From assembly GCA_051313645.2 (NCBI GenBank), contig JBNRSN020000015.1:134292001-134356000 (forward strand): DNA of 64,000 bases, in the 5' to 3' direction. The notes below the pieces were generated by a model that made no database searches, had not been told where the DNA came from, and saw nothing but the letters and a program-made list of their open reading frames with translations. Source of the DNA: Centroscyllium fabricii (Eukaryota). Position numbers and translations under genes: made by a program. Below, one piece after another: positions 5,380-47,337 of this stretch; positions within the stretch are counted from its first letter, which is position 1, and every line of letters starts with the position of its first letter.

Positions 5380-5620
5380 TCTGAATGTAATTGTCGAATC
5401 CAATAAATTGTCCACTTGAACGAAATAAACGAGAGGCGGTGGCAGTGGTGGAACCTGAATATTGGCACTGAGAGCAGATGACAAACAAATGCCAAAGATA
5501 AACAGGCTCTCCCATACACCGCTGGTTGGGTCAGGTACACCTGAACCGCTTGGCTGGATCTGGATCCTGTCATTTACTTGGAAGTTGATCTTAACGAGTT
5601 GTGTGGACGACTTGACTGAA
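5380..5620. promoter_or_regulatory. Candidate intron-7 element next to exon 7 (7CE1-like)
   Basis: Position plus motif density (CAGATG E-box, TGACA, GATAAACA); inferred. Confidence 0.35.
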
Positions 5621-5750
5621 CACCTGCCCGGAGTAGCCGCACTCACTCTATCTGCCCATCTATCTGCCCATCCAGGAACGCTCTACATTGGGTCATCTCG
5701 CCAGCCTGTTAAAGCGCAGGTGTCGCCCCCACCCCCCCAGCATCCCTTAC

Positions 5751-5916
5751 CTTGGTTTGGCTGCCCTGGGACCGAACTGCCCGGATACCAGCCAGGCCGG
5801 GTACCCCATGCACCTGTCTGCCCGTTCAGCATCCTCAGCTTATCATACATCCCATCCGCTCCCATCTGCTGCTTTTCGCTAGCCAGGTTGCGAAGGACTC
5901 GGTTAATCGATGACAC
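5751..5916 (-). CDS. pax6: Pax6 exon 7 (end of paired domain + linker)
   Basis: 166 bp, ttcag|GTG...CAAG|gtaagg; encodes [55 protein letters not shown]. Contains the MGADG Met used by paired-less isoforms. Next exon lies beyond the left edge. Confidence 0.98.
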
Positions 5917-5954
5917 CTGAAAGCAAATCAGACACTCTCCTTAAATAACAATGG

Positions 5955-6030
5955 ACGAAAACGCCGGAGACCCCTCGGCAGGTCCGGCAGTGGAGAGCGA
6001 AACAGAGTTAACGTTTCGGGGCTGTGACTG
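5955..6030 (-). mobile_element. Degenerate Penelope-derived fragment (family 2)
   Basis: GGAGAGCGAAACAGAGTTAACGTTTCGGG is similar to 42740-42790. Confidence 0.45.
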
Positions 6031-6750
6031 TTAAATATCTCGCCGCTCTTCAAGTGATCAGTTTGAAGGTTGAAACGCGCACGAATAATCAGCTACTAAA
6101 CTAACGTTAAACAGACAAGAATTATGCTTCTCTAATCGATACTAATTGATCTAGGAAATGCATTTCATATGAGGCACTAGGATAGTTCAGGCTCCACCGA
6201 ATGCTGATGGGTGAAGTATATAGGTGAAGGTTTGACAATATATGCGTCCATCTGCATTCATTATCAATAAGCAACGCAAATTTTACTTTTTGCTTTTCTA
6301 CATTTATGGGAGTGAATGGGGAGTAAGCATTCCATTGTACGAGTTACAAATGGCAATAAAATTATCTTGAATCTTGAATCTTGAAAATGAAATCAATCAC
6401 AAACTCGGGTTTAATTAATACATATTAATTGACCCAAAGTTGTGGCTGGGTCTGCACCAAATGATTGCGCGCGTTGCACTGTTCAATGGTGAACAGCCAG
6501 CCTTTCACACTCCTCCAGTAATCGCTATCAAATCCAGGAGTAATCTTTCAAATCATCACTGCAACCAGGATTACAACATCATCATATTATGGCTGGATTT
6601 AAACAAATTCGCTTCACATCACTGCAGATTTATCCGTCGAAGAAAGATGGCAATATTTATTTCAACCCCATGGCCATAATCCAGGAGTTAAAATTCGCCA
6701 GCAATGTTAATTTCACGAGAAATCGACGCCTGCGGGAGATCGGGGTTTCA

Positions 6751-7092
<342 letters not shown>

Positions 7093-7215
7093 CTAAATGT
7101 ATATATATAGGAAATCACATGCATCAAAAAAAGTTTTACAAATAAAATGGCTCTTTTTTTTGATAATATATATTTATGCAGGTATGTAAATATAGTTAAA
7201 CAATGGTGAGCTTAC

Positions 7216-7257
7216 TTTTCGATTATCCACTACTTGGACTTTTGCATCAGCATGGGT
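7216..7257 (-). CDS. pax6: Pax6 alternative exon 5a (14 aa)
   Basis: 42 bp, tgtag|ACCCATGCTGATGCAAAAGTCCAAGTAGTGGATAATCGAAAA|gtaagc = THADAKVQVVDNRK, cf. human THADAKVQVLDNQN. Confidence 0.96.
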
Positions 7258-7348
7258 CTACAATACAAAAATATACCTTAAATGGCAATGGGAAACGGAC
7301 CAATATTGCATCGATTTCAAGAGAATTTCAGGCGCGTGCCAAAGTTAC

Positions 7349-7398
7349 TTTTTAAAAAAAAAGTTTCAAACTTAATTTTTTTTGCATCAACATTGGGT
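7349..7398 (-). pseudogene. Degenerate tandem duplicate of exon 5a (pseudo-exon, 50 nt)
   Basis: 7381-7471 repeats 7241-7330; tgtag|ACCCAATGTTGATGCAAAA...AAAAA|gtaact; a 1-nt insertion gives ACC CAA TGT TGA (stop). Confidence 0.8.
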
Positions 7399-7696
7399 CT
7401 ACAATACAAAAATAAACCCTTAAATGGCAGGGGGAAATCTTACCATTTCTCAATCATTTCAAGATAATTTCTTGCTTTTTTTTCCTTGCCAATTGTGAAA
7501 GAAATTACTTTGAAGGCACGAATGCAATTTTTAGGAAGCATTTTTGGATTGTAGAAAACCCCTTCTAGAAAATGTTTCAATAAGCTGATTGCATATGCAA
7601 TATTAACACTATGACATCTTGCATGCGTTTTTTAGTTCGATTTTTGCAATGATCTGAATATATATATATATACTTATTAACGACACACCGATATCA

Positions 7697-7903
<207 letters not shown>

Positions 7904-8361
7904 TCACAGCGCCCGTCCTTAATCCCGCAGGAGAGCCCAATTGCGAGAAAAAAAAACTGACCTATAAACGCGCTCTCTTGCTCAAAACACGAAAACTGCC
8001 AATCAAAAACAGAATACCTTACGAGCGACGAAAGCGTCGGTGTGCTCACAAATCCTCTCCACCCGAAAGAAACGCAACAGACCACTCACTCAACGTGGAC
8101 AACCAGAGAAAGCCAACACAGGCGAGATTTTCGCGAAATTGAACGAGAGAGCGCCTAATCGAGCAACTAACAGTTCCTCCTTAAACTGACAATGCAAACT
8201 CAACTGGATTCAAGATTGCAAAAATGACACGTTATCTTCCCGAAATTACAACAGATGCCCCACAAATGCACCACAACAAGCCAATTTTTTTTTGCGTTAT
8301 TATTTTTTTTTAAAACACCCAGAGAAGGGACAGTAATTGTAAGCGCATGGAAACTCCTAAC

Positions 8362-8820
8362 CTGAAACTCAGGCTGGTAACCGTGTCCCTGGAGGAAGCT
8401 CCCCGGCTTATGGAGAGAACCTGTTCTCCTCTCCCTGGGAGCGCCTGCTAAATTGGCTCTACAAAGCCCAGCCACTTAACCATAAATAAGCTCCGAATAT
8501 AGCAGGGGAGGCAAACTGATGAGGCTTGCTGACATTTGTCTCGAAAATCAAGCTAGCTGCACGTCAACTTTGAGCTTAATTTCTAGAAATAAGCGGAAGT
8601 CTCCCTGGATAGTGCACGGAAGGATAATTGAAAAGCTCAGTCCCAAACACTTGTGGCAGGCATGTCACTTTATGACACTGTTCCACTTTGAAAATCGCAT
8701 CGTCACGACAAATGGTAGCATGGCAAAACGTCCCTTTCTGTCCGCATTTGTATATCATTCATAGTGTCTTGCACTATCCTCATTACCCTTAAAGGAAGGC
8801 TTCATTTTAAGGTTGCCTGG
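8362..8820 (-). promoter_or_regulatory. Neuroretina enhancer (NRE/alpha element) and exon alpha, intron 4
   Basis: Minus strand has TTTTCAATTATCCTTCC...GACTTCCGCTTATTTCTAGAAATTAAGCTCAAAGTTGACGTGCAGCTAG...GGAGCTTATTTAT, matching the recalled mammalian alpha region; donor TTTCAG|GTTAGG at 8362/8361. Confidence 0.85.
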
Positions 8821-9529
8821 GGGGCTAGGCGCGGTCACGACACGGGGACGCGCGCCCTACTTAATTCAACACTGTTAAAAAGATGCAAAAACGCTAACCA
8901 TTTAAATTTAAAAAAAAATAATCACATGCATCTAAACATTTTTTTTTAAAGCACATACAGTACATATTTATAGCCTTTTTAAGTTTTAAAATGCCTTTGT
9001 TGATTAGAACCAGGACTCCACAATTACACTTTATCTCCGTTAATCCTGCTATGGTACCTGGACATTCATTTAAAAAAATCTAACTAATGACAAATAATGC
9101 AGTTTTGGGGGGGGGAAGTCAAAAGTACAATTTTTACATAAATTTGAAATACAAGTATTGTAACTATGATAGCGTTTTCTTTTTTTTTAAACCAATCCAT
9201 TAAATTCACATACCACACAGCCATCAGTTCTGAAACGAGCTGGGCATTCTCAAATAACAGCAAAAGGTGTGATTCTTTTGAAAGATACAGTCAGCCCCAG
9301 CTACCTGGAGTACTGACGTGTAGGTGTCTCGAGTTCCCCATCAAAAGGCTGTGTGTACATTAAGCAGTGTACCTTACACTGACTCACACATGCCCAGGCC
9401 TTGACTGCACCCCATCCCGCCCCCTCCCCACCCCCACGCCAAGACTTCCACATGCAAGTTTTATTTTTTTTTGAAAGAGAGGAGATCGTACAAACAGAAG
9501 TTTTTTTAAAAAGTACATCTTAAATCGCA

Positions 9530-9800
9530 GTATTAATCTCTGTGCTGGGGCGTGCGAGAATCGCACAGTGGCAATGATTATGCGCCATGCATTCTATTGC
9601 GAGACATCTAATACGAAAACATATGGTGGCAATTTGGATGCTATGCAGCATATACACCCAGGAGTTATTAGCACAAAGCCCGTAGTGCCCGCCGCGACCT
9701 TTAAACAAACTAAAGACTTCAGCCGAATGATATCTCCTCAGCAATTCGCGCACCAGCTTACTCAATCACACACACACACATCCCATTTCAATTAATCCCA
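9530..9800. promoter_or_regulatory. Candidate intron-4 CNE (ele4-like)
   Basis: Complex non-repetitive block between exon 4 and the NRE; positional inference. Confidence 0.35.
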
Positions 9801-10214
9801 TTATATTGAACTTTTAGTTACACCTTCCGTTCTCAGTGGATATTCTGATGGTACTTTGGAGCGGTTTTAATTTGCTTTTGCAACTAATGTATTTTCCCAA
9901 AACAAAAATAATAGATTATTTTTTTTGGGGGGGTGGTGAAGGGGAGGGGGCGGGGTGTGAAATTTGGAGCAAATGGCTGAGATTAAATATGATCAATATC
10001 CGGTTAGAAAGCAGCCGTGATTGGAAATGGACAAAGAACTCACTGGCGCGCCAGCAAAGCTGCAGATTCAGTTCTGTGGTGAGGTTCGAGTGGCAGGGAA
10101 CCAAGCGTCCTTGCTCAATAAGGGTCCACAGGTAAATGAAGGGAATCGCGCGTATTCTGTGCCCCCCCCCCCCCCCCCCCCCTGTTGAAGTGGTCAGTAA
10201 ATTCAGGGAATAAC

Positions 10215-10310
10215 AACCGAAAATGCTGGCAAAACTCAGCAGGCCAGGCAACATCCGTGGAGAGAGAGACAGAGAGTCGACGTTTCGGGTTCGGACCCTT
10301 TGTCAAGACA
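10215..10310 (-). mobile_element. Penelope-derived fragment (family 2), decayed hammerhead core
   Basis: Minus strand TTGACAAAGGGTCCGAACCCGAAACGTCGAC; similar to 42685-42790. Confidence 0.6.
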
Positions 10311-10682
10311 AGTAAATTCAGGGAGTCGTTTTTTTCTGTTTGGCCTTTAGCACGACATCTCCTGACAACACATAACTGGTAGCCCCCCCTTCCAAACACG
10401 GCCCCTGTCTGACAGTCACAACGGTTACATGCCAGCAATCTTACAACACGGACGCTCGAAACTGCCGGCCAAAGTCTGGCTGGGAAGCTAATTTAAACGT
10501 GTGTTTTTGTTTTAACAATTCTTATTAATTCTGCAACCTGCATATTTGGACTTAACACTTGAAGTACGGGGGGGGGGGGGGGGATGGGTGTCGGGGGGTG
10601 GGGTGGGAGCGACCTGTTCTTTACGCACATCAATGTTTGGCATTTTTGGGTGATTGATATAAGCACATGGAGCATCACTTAC

Positions 10683-10692
10683 TGTTCTGCAT
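10683..10692 (-). CDS. pax6: Pax6 exon 4 coding part (ATG CAG AAC A = MQN-S)
   Basis: CAGCATGCAGAACA|gtaagt; phase 1 joins exon 5 to give [13 protein letters not shown]. Confidence 0.95.
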
Positions 10693-10737
10693 GCTGAATT
10701 GTTACACCAGTGTCCCACGTGGCTTGCTTATCGTATT
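10683..10737 (-). other. pax6: Pax6 exon 4 (55 nt; 45 nt UTR + 10 nt CDS)
   Basis: Acceptor ttttattactattag|AATACG, candidate branch site TGATTAAC upstream. Confidence 0.85.
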
Positions 10738-11048
10738 CTAATAGTAATAAAAGTATGCGTTAATCAGGGTCAAGTCACAGACAACAAGGTTTTTGGAAAC
10801 ATTTATCATCGCTGAGAAAGCTGACTGTGAAATACTCTATAAAGAGCACTTTCAAAATAAGAATTGCTAAAAACTAAACAAGCATCCCGCCGCGAGCGGC
10901 CAGACACACGATATATATATATATATATATATAGGTGTCTGTGTGTGTTTAATGCAAAGCAATCGCTTGCTGGCATTGGAGTTTGTTTGGAATTTTCAAT
11001 TTTAAATGCTGCCCGATTGATTGAAAGCAATAATATTTCAAAACTTGC

Positions 11049-11111
11049 CTGAAAGCTGTGTTGGCAGTCTGTGACCACAGACATCTGTTTGTCACTATTA
11101 AAGTCTTCCCT
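11049..11111 (-). other. pax6: Pax6 exon 3 (5'UTR, 63 nt, GC donor)
   Basis: ttttcccccaatag|AGGGAAGACTTTAA...CAGATGT...TTTCAG|gcaagt; resembles recalled human exon 3 (GGGGAAGACTTTAAC...TTTCAG). Confidence 0.8.
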
Positions 11112-14100
11112 CTATTGGGGGAAAAAAAAGCAAAAAAAAAAGTTTATTATGGTAACCTGGTGGGTGCTTGTTTTTTTAAAATTATATTATTGGTGCAGTT
11201 TCCTGAATTTCCCTATTTAGACCACAATATGCATCCGTTCATTCCGCTACAATTTGACTGTTTAAAGGCATTTGGCCTTGGAACTGGGCTGCCTAAAGGT
11301 TGGACAAACATAGCAATGGGGACCGCTCCTTTTAAGACGATGTAACCCCCTCTTGTGCAAAGTTCCCCCAGCACCCACCCGTCCCCCACCCCCAACTCCC
11401 ACCACCTATCAGTTACTTTGAAGAGGGGGGTAAGAATTTTCGCCCGAATTCTATCTTACATCGCCCACAGTGAAAACACCCAATTGTATTCAACTCAGGA
11501 ACTTCGACTGAGGCCCGTCCGAAAGTGCGTTGCCTCCTCGCACTGATTTCTTGTGTGTGTGTGTGTGTGTGAGCGAGAGAGACTGTGGCCCCGATCTTAT
11601 TGCTTCAGTTTCTTAATGGTGAATCTGACCAGTGAAGTCACACTGTCTCATAGCGGCAGGGGCATGCGTGGAAAGTGGTGTGTTTTAATACCTTGAAAAT
11701 ATATTTAAACTCAGTTATTTCGTGTCTGGTTTCGACGGGACACGCCTTATTGAAAACCTCTGTGGTGTTTCGCCGTTGCAAATACTGTATACTATCCGGC
11801 ACTGTTTATTTTGGGTAGCCCAGGAGTTCTGTGCTTTCTTTTGGACTCAGCAACAGACTAGGATTCCAGCAAAAAAAAACTTCTTAATGTACTGTACTCT
11901 ATAAGATACTTCTGAACTTAGTTACTCTTGATTAACTTTCTTCCCTGGTCTTTAGATCTTCTTTTATGCTTAGGTATTCTGACACACGCTGTCTACCTCG
12001 CCTCAGTGCTTAAAAAGTAGTAACGGGAGGGGGTCAGAACTGATCGACAAAGACTACAGAAAGTGAACAATGCTTTCTATTCTGCTTACAGCCCAAACTC
12101 AGAGAGCAAGCCCCCCCCCCCCCCCCTCTCCCTCCCTCCCTCCCTCCTAGGCTCCCCAGCCAGCAACACAGCGTCCAGCTAAACGCAGCGCACTCTTCAA
12201 CTCACACTTACTCAAGATAGAAGGACAAACTTTCTTCAACATCAAACAGTGACTGCGTAGAATTATTATTTTTTTGGGGGGGAGGGGGTTGCTTTATTTC
12301 CCCCCTCCCTCTCACTCCACCCAACCCCTCCCCCCACCACCTCCTGAAATAAAACAAGTAATTTCTGTTATGAGTATTTGGAGGTAATTGTGTTGCTGGT
12401 ATGGGTTGTTAAGGGTTGTAAAAAGACACAACAGCTCGGTGGGGTGCTCAATTGCGAGAAGACAATCACAATAAAGGATCTATTCAAGGGGTTTGGTAAA
12501 AGAGGGGTACAATAACGAAATAGACCAGCTTTCATTTTCTCTTTCTCGAAATACTTTATTCTGTTTGCTTTTGCCACCATAAGCATAACGCATATTGTGC
12601 CCCCCACCCCACTATTGCATCTTGAGCTAAATTCTCCAACGCTCGCCTGTCCTGTCTCCCTCTTCTTTCCATTCATTACACACCAGCGGAAAATAATTTA
12701 TAGACTAGCTTTGTCATCTGTGCCTGCACACACACACAGACACAAAAAAAATAAACTTCAAACAAACACTTTCTCTCAGCATGCAGACTTCCCTGCGTAA
12801 ATATTTACAGCAAGGAAGGGTGGCTACCTGATTACCCCAGAACTCAAGCGAGCAGGAGAGATACCGGGGCGTTTAACTTCTCCAACTGCAGCCAGTCACA
12901 GAGACTCCCAGAAAGATCATTTGTGTTTTCTCACTTTAAGCAAGGGGCCGTCACATTTGCAACCATTTTCTTAAATAATAATAACAACAACCAAAAATGA
13001 ATAAATGAAGATTTCTTTTTTTGACTGTGATTGGATTTTTTGTCATCCTGCGGTATGGGAAACGCTTTCCTAATAATTACTCGGCTTGCAACAAAAATAA
13101 AAAACGATTTGTCACTTTTCTGAAAAGTTCGCACGACGTTTTATTTCTTCATCAAAATGTCTTTAAAAATTAATAATATTCATAATAACAAGGAACCGGC
13201 AGCCGATAGCGTCCTGACATATCCCAGTGCTAGTATTTTAAGCCCACTGTTTACTATTGTCTGTTCGGTACAGTGATGAACACAAGTGCTGAACAAGCAG
13301 TTCTCAGAGGCCCAGCCTGAGAGTCGCATCTGTGTCTCCCGTTCTATATATCTACAGATATCTAGATCTATATATATATTAATATGCAGGTCTAACCGCG
13401 GGCCTCAAATACAGCGATTGTGATCTTTCTTATTTTGTATTTTACTGTGGATTTCGAGCCAAACTCTCACCCTTTTCCGTGGGCCTAGCTTTCCCCTCAA
13501 CGCCGGCCGAGGGTACATGTCACCAAGTATTGAAATGTTTCTCAGAAGCACGCCCGCAAATTACACAATAAACCCGCCGTTTCCTCTGTCCTTTTCTGAC
13601 TTTCATTTTACTCTTTATTCCCCACATTTCTGCATTTAAAAAAAAACGCTGCCAACTTTCCGTGCATTTAAAAAAAAATGCATTAATATTATTCCCACCT
13701 GCGTTGCTATTTCCCAGATTGTGACTGTTAAGATGCGTGCAGTCAGTAATGGGAACACTTATACCCACAATATGGAGAAATCTGCACTGTTTTTTTCAGG
13801 ACCAGAAATTGGAAATCTTAATTATAATAACGCGAGGTGCGGAACAGTTCGGGTGAGCGCTCATTAATTTCTTATAATCTCGAGTAGTTGAGGCAGTTTA
13901 AACCTAACAGAGACAGATCTGTATACTTCAGCTCTTCAGTGTTAAATGTCTTATTATTGCTTCTTGTTGAAGCGGAATTTGACGTCAAATTTTCGGTCTT
14001 TTAATTGCGAATGCGTATTAATATCCTCCCCATAAAATACACACCACAGACAGCGATGGACTTGGCTTTCTCGCCCAGGCCATGCTCGTTTTAAATGGCT

Positions 14101-45356: not shown

Positions 45357-45950
45357 CAGGTTGAGCACCATTAATCCGGCACCCTCAGGACCAGGCCAGT
45401 GCCGGACCACTGAAAATTCCGAACCACTGAAGGTTCAGGGGGAGCGCGCGGTAGAACACTTGCCGGGGCCTGGAGCGTGCGGTAGAACACTCCCCGGGGC
45501 CCGGAGCGTGTGGTAGAACACTCCCCGGGGCCCGGAGCGCACGGTAGAACACTCCCCGGGGCCCGGAGCGTGTGGTAGAACACTCCCCGGGGCCCGGAGC
45601 GTGTGGTAGAACACTCCCCGGGGCCCAGAGCGTGCGGTAGAACACTCCCCGGGGCCCAGAGCACGCGGTAGAACACTCCCCGGGGCCCAGAGCGTGTGGT
45701 AGAACACTCCCCGGGGCCCGAAGCGCGCGGTAGAACACTGCCCGGGAGGGAGCCCGGGGACAGAACACTTACAAGACCTGAAAAAACAGAAACCCAAATG
45801 CCCGACTCCTTCGGCGCTTGCTCACCCGTCACGGGAAATGGTGGCGCCACCAAGCAGCTGCTCTGCAAGATGAAGAGCGCCAATTTCCAATCGTGCCGAA
45901 CCACTGAAGCTGCCGGACCATCGGGTGCCAGATTACCGGTGCTCAACCGG
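45357..45950. mobile_element. Tigger/pogo-like MITE with internal minisatellite
   Basis: CAGGTTGAGCACC...GGTGCTCAACCGG|TA; reverse-complement homolog at 56502-56778. Confidence 0.85.
45445..45745. repeat. 31-bp GC-rich minisatellite, ~10 units
   Basis: GGTAGAACACTCCCCGGGGCCCGGAGCGTGT starting at 45450, 45481, 45512 ... 45729. Confidence 0.95.
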
Positions 45951-46139: not shown

Positions 46140-47337
46140 GGCTGAAAAATTGGTCAGCGCATGTTTTGGGGCGCTAACCTCAGCGCCGATAGAAAATTAG
46201 CGCCGGAGCCTCCAATCTTCGCTTTAGCGCCTGCCTTGCAGATTGCAGCACTAAATCAAGCATTGCATAGGTGCAAACGGCCAATATTCAGGCGCTAAGT
46301 GGCGAGTGCGGGCACAGCGCTCCATCTGCCACTTCTGGCCTTCCCAGCAATGCCGGCGCCGGTCAGCTCTTAAAGGGGGAGGGGAAATAGTATATGATCT
46401 CTCCTCACCGCCCTCTGTCTCTCTCTGTATCTCTCCTCACCTCCCTCTGTCTGTCTCCGATCTCTGCTCACCTCCCTCTGTCTCTCTCCTCACCTCCCTC
46501 TGCCTCTCTCTGTAACTCTCCTCACCTCCCTCTGCCTCTCTCTGTATCTCTCCTAACCTCCCTCTGTCTCTCTCTGATCTCCCCTCACCTCCCTCTGTCT
46601 CTCCCTGTATCTCTCCTAACCTCCCTCTGTCTGTCTCTGATCTCCTCTCACCTCCCTCTGTCTCTCTCTGTATCTCTCCTAACAGCCCTCTGTCTGTCTC
46701 TGATCTCCCCTCACCTCCCTCTGTCTCTCCCTGTATCTCTCCTAACCTCCCTCTGTCTGTCTCCGATCTCCCCTCACCTCCCTCTGTCTCTCTCTGTATC
46801 TCTCCTAACCTCCCTCTGTCTGTCACCTATCTCCCCTCACCTCCCTCTATCTCTCTCTGTATCTCTCCTCACCTCCCTCTGTCTCTCTCTGTATCTCTCC
46901 TAACCTCCCTGTGTCTCTCTCTGATCTCCCCTCACCTCCCTCTGTCTCTCTCTGTATCTCTCCTAACCTCCCTCTGTCTGTCTCCGATCTCCCACAAAAT
47001 GGCCACTGCACGAAAGGGAGGAAGTGTCTCCCTTTAAAGAACGCCACAGCGGCCCCACATCACCTCAGCTTTGTTTGTGAAAGCTGGCGTGGGCAGCGCT
47101 GGGCGTTAGTTAGGCGGCCGCTGGTCAATTTCGGGTGCAGCCCTGGGGCCGGGCGTTGCACCAGGATATCAGGAAGGATTCACGTTCCCCAAGTAGCGCG
47201 CGCTAACAGTTAGCACTGGCGCTGTTCGCTTGGTGAATTTTGGGCGTGGCGCAAAAGCTTTTGCGCCCGGCGCTAAAACCTCTTGCGCCCATTTTCGGGC
47301 GCTAATCGGCCGGCGCTAGAGTGCCAATTTTTCGGCC
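46140..47337. mobile_element. Non-autonomous Harbinger-like element
   Basis: TIR GGCTGAAAAATTGG / CCAATTTTTCGGCC (1 mismatch), 3-bp TSD ATA, many GGCGCT subterminal motifs. Confidence 0.7.
46395..46992. repeat. CT-rich minisatellite, ~63-bp higher-order unit
   Basis: 21-codon periodicity in the translation (ISPHLPLSLSVSLLTSLCLSL). Confidence 0.9.

Follow-up and report, generated by a model that had tools for sequence, protein, structure and literature searches.

In Centroscyllium fabricii, we found that intron 5 of Pax6 carries a tandem duplication of exon 5a and its upstream acceptor region, and that the duplication is genuine. The upstream copy has lost its reading frame and its donor, yet its acceptor block is unchanged across the relatives that share it. 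Our best explanation, to which we give a probability of roughly 0.45, is that the copy has been kept mainly as one arm of a predicted RNA stem that would hide its own splice signal. Coordinates refer to the window, that is, the whole stretch of 64,000 nucleotides of contig JBNRSN020000015.1 that was analyzed, and are collected in Table 1.

Table 1. Positions of the Pax6 exons, the two copies of the exon 5a unit, and the predicted pairing partners
Feature	Position	Strand	Details
Pax6 exon 5	7833-7703	minus	131 nt; donor CAG/GTAAAA; identified by translation; joined to exon 6 through a loose end in run X16
True exon 5a	7257-7216	minus	42 nt, THADAKVQVVDNRK; donor AAA/GTAAGC; joint with exon 6 skipping 123 nt (run X16)
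Pax6 exon 6	7092-6877	minus	216 nt
Upstream copy, clearly homologous part	7380..7475	minus	-77 to +18 of the exon 5a acceptor; 79 of 94 aligned letters identical, 4 gap columns
Acceptor of true exon 5a with its upstream flank (second unit)	7258..7334	minus	distal part drifts among species
Decayed exon 5a body	7349..7398	minus	1-nt insertion; TGA at 7389-7387 (codon 4); probable 20-nt deletion; variable A/T runs
GTAACT, weak donor-like site	7343..7348	minus	private to C. fabricii; lacks -1G and +5G
Donor-like site ATG/GTAAGA	7438..7446	minus	inside the invariant block; matches the donor consensus at 6 contiguous letters
Substitution-free run in B to E	7357..7516	minus	160 nt; copy plus 45 nt of unduplicated upstream sequence; one substitution in F (7495)
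Upstream intronic arm, single copy	7539..7561	minus	complementary to either acceptor; predicted 19 bp, -19 kcal/mol; no substitution listed in B to E (7 places of E unplaced)
8-bp hairpin predicted to cover the AG of the copy (7400-7399)	7395..7419	minus	from two copy-specific changes at -28 to -1; -8.1 versus -1.8 kcal/mol for true 5a
End of exon 6, with which the true 5a acceptor is predicted to pair as a second partner	6881..6905	minus	pairs with 7254-7277; 21 bp, -27.9 kcal/mol; best of 411 tiles

The sizes of exons 5 and 6 both match those given for vertebrate Pax6 in the available text of PMC4488758, and exon 5 lies 445 nt from exon 5a and 610 nt from exon 6. We observed a tandem repeat of about 141 nt (spacing, 140 to 141) that comprises part of intron 5 together with exon 5a. 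Local alignment of 7471-7380 with 7330-7240 scored 110, whereas 1000 dinucleotide shuffles reached a mean of 32.8 and a maximum of 54. The 21-mer around the acceptor (-16 to +5) is identical in the copy and in true 5a, and these are its two sole occurrences in the 7.2-Gb genome; no second locus of the duplicated unit was found in the species' own genome. An assembly artefact was ruled out, since four runs from two C. fabricii samples contained 95 of 95 sampled words (one of these runs being possibly the source of the assembly) and since contigs of four other species, B to E, covered 6850-7869 as one piece with no joint. Contigs of a further species, F, cover the copy as well, and the duplication is thus common to five other species. 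This bears out an earlier note on this DNA, which had reported the duplication from the sequence of C. fabricii, together with the identical acceptor, the 1-nt insertion, the stop at codon 4, the 50-nt body, and the 91 nt between that body and true 5a.

We then compared the copy with the working exon letter by letter. Clear homology to exon 5a stops 18 nt into the exon. Two differences fall in the first 18 exon letters and two in -28 to -1, while -73 to -29 is more diverged and the remaining body barely aligns. The earlier statement that the acceptor is better kept than the exon body is therefore accurate for most of the body but not for its first 18 letters, which are as conserved as -28 to -1. 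In the best global alignment, which is one of several possible in this low-complexity stretch, a 20-nt gap places the homologous donor at about 7375, where it reads TTAAG. GTAACT is thus probably not the duplicated donor. Moreover, its G at 7348 was missing in five of five relatives: E and F carry a plus-strand C>T at this position, so that GT becomes AT, and B, C, and D carry a two-letter deletion that starts there and includes that C (left-aligned indel convention, checked). Most simply, GTAACT reflects a private change in C. fabricii, and the probability of meeting a GTAA by chance within 70 nt is about 0.21. No change was listed in the TGA of the copy in any of the five relatives, the read-through frame of the copy contains further stops, and the length of the copy's exon differs among species through indels in 7354-7375.

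These observations bear on the proposal of the earlier note that the copy might act as an NMD poison exon, here a 50-nt cassette (7398-7349) with its own donor that would tune the Pax6 dose. Poison cassette exons are a class of AS-NMD event, and the copy resembles them in its early stop in frame with exon 5, in its conserved acceptor, and in the strong conservation of the block around it; in C. fabricii, an AG and a GT do bracket the 50 nt with the stop, 91 nt away from 5a. Unlike such exons, the copy has no conserved donor and showed no junction among the contigs of the relatives, and the variable exon length, the poor match of GTAACT to a donor, and the chance frequency of GTAA count further against the proposal. 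Because the donor is absent from all five relatives, a poison cassette is refuted as a conserved device, and we regard this reading in general as very improbable. The donor described as intact is present in C. fabricii itself but not in its relatives; of the two splice sites, only the acceptor is conserved in the species that share the duplication.

The acceptor block of the copy is probably constrained, as judged from the alignments. Relatives were chosen by shared words and comprised four out of 11 DNA runs from other organisms (these four being B, C, D, and E) and three of six probable RNA runs (F twice and G once); B to D are close kin, each is represented by one contig, and D has a depth of 3.7. 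Substitutions of E and F were fully listed for 7030-7530, five indel rows were placed in 7093-7158 from offsets, and one further A>T in each of B, C, and D was placed at 7354-7356 from run totals and the A>T places of E. The counts leave unplaced seven places of E outside 7030-7530, as well as inserted letters, of which C has 9 and D has 7. Among the placed sites, the remaining intron showed 26 variable sites in 354 nt in B to E versus none in 7381-7471 (Fisher p = 0.004), and E alone showed 14 in 182 nt versus none (p = 0.006). By these counts, 7381-7471 was free of substitutions in all five relatives, including the AG, the U-rich tract, the insertion, and the TGA. The upstream flank of true 5a, for its part, carried three substitutions in E, and two plus an 8-nt deletion in F. 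Three of the four substituted sites there restore the letter of the copy, which indicates that the copy is the more ancestral side. The copy is thus both frozen and nearer to the ancestral state, and the duplication predates these species. No unduplicated outgroup was seen: the 5a pattern had no match in metagenome contigs, and none of 80 loci fetched with exon 6 held exon 5a or the intron.

The constraint is also regional and extends past the duplicated unit, with two variable sites in the 86 nt of 7517-7602, so that 7357-7602 is nearly invariant. In the flanking exons, we observed one listed variable site in the 131 nt of exon 5 in B to E, where synonymous sites hardly vary, and none listed in 7007-7092 of exon 6, compared to nine in 6877-7006. 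Little synonymous variation in exon 5 and in the 5' part of exon 6 amounts to an overlapping constraint around exon 5a. A predicted stem of 19 bp leaves this extended constraint (7357-7602, exon 5, and the synonymous sites of the 5' half of exon 6) unexplained.

Regional conservation invites the reading that the copy is a neutral relic in a slowly changing stretch, silent through the loss of its donor and exon signals. The species are few, closely related, and ascertained by shared words, nearby synonymous sites also change little, and an invariant run of 91 nt anywhere in the intron has a chance of 0.087. However, the 160-nt run was matched in only 0.0002 of 20,000 permutations, in E alone the neighbouring 123-nt intron between 5a and exon 6 accumulated 13 substitutions, and the copy is better preserved than the flank of the working exon, which renders a neutral relic improbable. 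The constraint might instead come from another element, such as an enhancer or a platform for splicing factors, which would have spanned the upstream breakpoint and remained whole only in the upstream copy; the look of an acceptor and the pairing would then be by-products. Such an element would fit the reach of the invariance 45 nt beyond the duplicated unit and as far as about 7602, and it would fit a copy that is frozen while the side of true 5a drifts. Moreover, Pax6.1 loci are rich in conserved elements according to the accessible part of PMC3554528, and an intron 5 splicing enhancer was inferred by the human minigene study PMC11936725, as far as its available text goes. It does not, however, predict that the longest identity between the copies should coincide with the footprint of the helix described below, nor the hairpin specific to the copy, and we consider it an unlikely source of the constraint.

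In a further step, we investigated the predicted RNA pairing of the two acceptors. The single-copy arm at 7561-7539 was the best partner of both acceptors within the upstream intron, with predicted duplexes of -19.1 and -19.0 kcal/mol and 19 pairs each. Shuffles paired equally well in 32 and 19 of 2000 cases for the two 5a-type acceptors (p of about 0.01 to 0.02), versus 650 for the exon 6 acceptor. Among 56 other acceptor-like sites in the window, one had an upstream partner that good, and that one was a perfect inverted repeat. The predicted helix spans 7414-7395 in the copy and 7273-7254 in true 5a, that is, 20 of the 21 letters identical between the copies. The acceptor pairs better with repeats elsewhere, the pairing with 7561-7539 ranking 12th among 411 tiles. 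Since no variation was listed in either arm, there was no covariation to score. Folding of the whole region was no better than that of shuffles (z of -0.63 and -1.04), and the search of Rfam gave four weak matches in 5500-12500, none in 7093-7702 and none at gathering score. An A/T-rich inverted repeat (7153-7175/7341-7363) was considered separately as a structural candidate and rejected, as both of its arms vary among species.

In five of six unconstrained folds, the arm was held by the copy with a stem probability of 0.77 to 0.92. The sixth fold (unrestricted, 7702-7200) gave the arm to true 5a (0.87, compared to 0.05 for the copy), and the copy then closed its own hairpin (0.92). Thus, the predicted owner of the arm depends on the folding window. 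All of the folds tried predict a paired AG in the copy. Comparable two-change variants folded as well as the hairpin of the copy in 35 of 3040 cases, a comparison made after the fact and in which either copy may be the one that changed. We also found the end of exon 6 to be unusually complementary to the acceptor of true 5a, more so than its peptide would demand. This predicted pairing, likewise found after the fact, was equalled by 10 of 5000 synonymous recodings and by none of 69 other animal loci; the helix stops 4 nt short of the exon 6 donor, and the single change of E there (6895) falls in a bulge. The true 5a acceptor is predicted to pair with its own exon as well (-9.6).

From the observed duplication, decay, donor loss, invariance, and complementarity, we infer a geometry, a capture of the arm, and a swap of partners. 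Before the duplication, 7561-7539 would have paired with a single 5a acceptor about 125 nt downstream. An old tandem duplication then copied the exon 5a acceptor and exon, and the upstream copy lost its reading frame and donor. This copy would have retained the geometry of about 125 nt and, being transcribed first, would capture the arm, for which the true 5a acceptor would compete. Whenever the arm is taken by true 5a, the copy would close the hairpin over its own AG. The copy would thereby stay silent in either fold, and the dosage-sensitive Pax6 would be protected from stop-containing transcripts. The choice of the exon 5a acceptor might then be run by competing helices formed with the upstream arm, the copy, its own exon, and the end of exon 6. 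A swap of partners could also shift the frequency of 5a inclusion, which is the weakest step of the scheme. Blocking the copy left the predicted accessibility of the true acceptor nearly unchanged (0.08 to 0.11 and 0.21 to 0.17), so that this tuning step is unsupported even in the fold model. That the dead copy really affects the Pax6/Pax6(5a) ratio in this lineage, as a structural sink capturing the arm, seems doubtful to us. The looser idea of the earlier note, that of a retained acceptor-like element that may bear on the Pax6/Pax6(5a) choice, gains support from the constraint.

We also looked for use of the copy in RNA, the evidence consisting of assembled contigs of relatives, from which rare forms get dropped and in which NMD would hide products. 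In run X16 (organism F), one contig joins 5a to exon 6 and another, which has a loose end at 7094, links exon 5 with exon 6, indicating that exon 5a is alternatively spliced in a species that bears the copy. An unspliced contig of the same run (7230-7530) crosses the acceptor of the copy at 7398, as does one of run X19 (7288-7530). Among the contigs of X16 and X19, from which rare forms are dropped, neither joints nor loose ends were observed at 7398, 7349, or 7444, and an exon 5-5a junction was likewise absent among the contig joints listed for these runs. Run X18 had no contig over the stretch, and no RNA run of C. fabricii containing it was listed. The listed depths were 9.14 for the unspliced contig and 561.7 and 360.7 for the junction contigs, and were not taken as inclusion levels. 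Separately, the X19 contig has a loose end at 7288 with 17 letters abutting a plus-strand genomic ATGGG. These letters presumably derive from a cDNA template-switch adapter, which they resemble; the loose end was therefore rejected as a splice joint and probably reflects an artefact of priming on unspliced RNA from intron 5.

The copy could alternatively work through proteins, as a decoy or minor alternative 3' splice site in competition with true 5a, with U2AF/U2 (and perhaps U1 at 7443) bound to it. Used at low frequency together with the 5a donor, 7398 would yield an exon of 183 nt that stops at codon 4 and is removed by NMD. The invariance of the AG, the U-rich tract, the insertion, and the TGA in all five relatives would agree with this notion, as would the stops in the read-through frame and the strong donor-like site within the invariant block; moreover, decoy acceptors are known (PMC2082412, available text). 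Against it stand the predicted pairing of the AG in all folds tried, the unspliced contigs that cross 7398 in two RNA runs (with the proviso on rare forms given above), and the fact that 47 nt around the AG are too short to demonstrate constraint alone. We consider a protein-bound decoy unlikely, and RNA pairing that hides the acceptor is the likelier route than use of the acceptor. As for the donor-like site, a GGTAAG is expected by chance in 160 nt with a probability of about 0.025, and the site was found after the fact. Donor-like sites lie about 43 nt upstream of each acceptor (7446-7438 for the copy and 7303-7295 for true 5a), and in the latter the GT..GT is kept in all species while the middle letters vary.

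The closest known systems are compared here as described in the available portions of the sources. The Pax6 locus would function most like the docking site/selector model, in which competing RNA structures arise when one stem arm is duplicated (Ivanov and Pervouchine 2018, PMC6071210), and the route to a masking stem at Pax6 would be the same as the one modelled there. Both involve a tandem exon duplication that includes one stem arm (predicted in our case), two copies complementary to one upstream site, and a kinetic advantage of the nearer copy. Unlike in that model, the arm at Pax6 would be the acceptor itself, so that pairing would repress rather than activate, and one exon is dead (frameshift, stop, and no conserved donor), leaving no mutually exclusive pair. 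With no second working exon and an arm that covers the acceptor, the Pax6 locus is not a member of that class. The In100 decoy 3' splice site of caspase-2 (PMC2082412) is likewise a conserved intronic acceptor look-alike with no productive use and an authentic look, the Pax6 copy being identical to the working acceptor over the 21-mer noted above. In100, however, lies downstream of the regulated exon, blocks a donor, and has U/C-rich PTB repeats, whereas the Pax6 copy, itself derived from the regulated exon, sits upstream of 5a and is followed by runs of A and T. Erythroblast-type decoy exons in retained introns (Parra et al. 2018, PMC6097662) share with the copy a conserved non-coding intronic acceptor, and unspliced intron 5 RNA was seen in our two runs. 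In contrast, those decoys are cryptic cassettes that show junctions when NMD is blocked and lie mostly in introns longer than 1 kb, while the Pax6 copy has no conserved donor and sits in the short intervals between exon 5 and exons 5a and 6 given above. Finally, SCN-alpha exons 5a/5b, which are accompanied by intronic elements that pair (bioRxiv 10.1101/2025.08.16.670673), are also an old vertebrate exon duplication in which RNA structure steers the choice, as is proposed here, but both SCN exons code and their structure was tested with minigenes.

We found no description of a duplicated Pax6 exon 5a, and none of an RNA-structure mechanism for the choice of 5a, in literature searched by titles and abstract openings, a coverage that excludes most subscription papers. 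Conserved Pax6 intron sequences were reportedly described by Jaworski et al. in 1997. The accessible parts of PMC3554528 and PMC4488758 do not mention a duplicated exon 5a, and the human Pax6 minigene papers PMC11936725 and PMC9863980 deal with 5a, with a short exon 6, and with skipping of exon 5, with no upstream 5a-like acceptor mentioned in their available text. Exon 5a alters DNA binding (PMC4488758 and PMC3554528, same parts), and Pax6:Pax6(5a) ratios are kept between about 3:1 and 10:1 in brain, as stated in the accessible text of PMC1489926. If the masking stem is true, a natural duplication has exposed a control element by marking both the arm and its partner, the copy is a pseudo-exon kept for structure and not for coding or NMD, and the same pairing deserves to be sought in human intron 5, aniridia being caused by splice variants there. 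A network of competing helices, if true, would provide a testable RNA-structure model of exon 5a regulation in vertebrates. If the stem is not true, the locus is still a neat case of a duplicated exon that fell silent by losing its donor.

Other features of the window were observed in passing. At 10692-10683, a start codon with the reading MQN is followed by a GTAAGT donor, which we take to be Pax6 exon 4. Upstream of the gene lie a GC-rich tandem array of a 31-nt unit (45441-45746, 9.9 copies) and a pyrimidine-rich 63/95-nt array (46395-46991). In the intron downstream of exon 7, 1353-1489 forms a perfect inverted repeat of two 67-nt arms with 3 nt between them, which would fold into a long double-stranded hairpin in the pre-mRNA and looks like a fragment of a head-to-head repeat.
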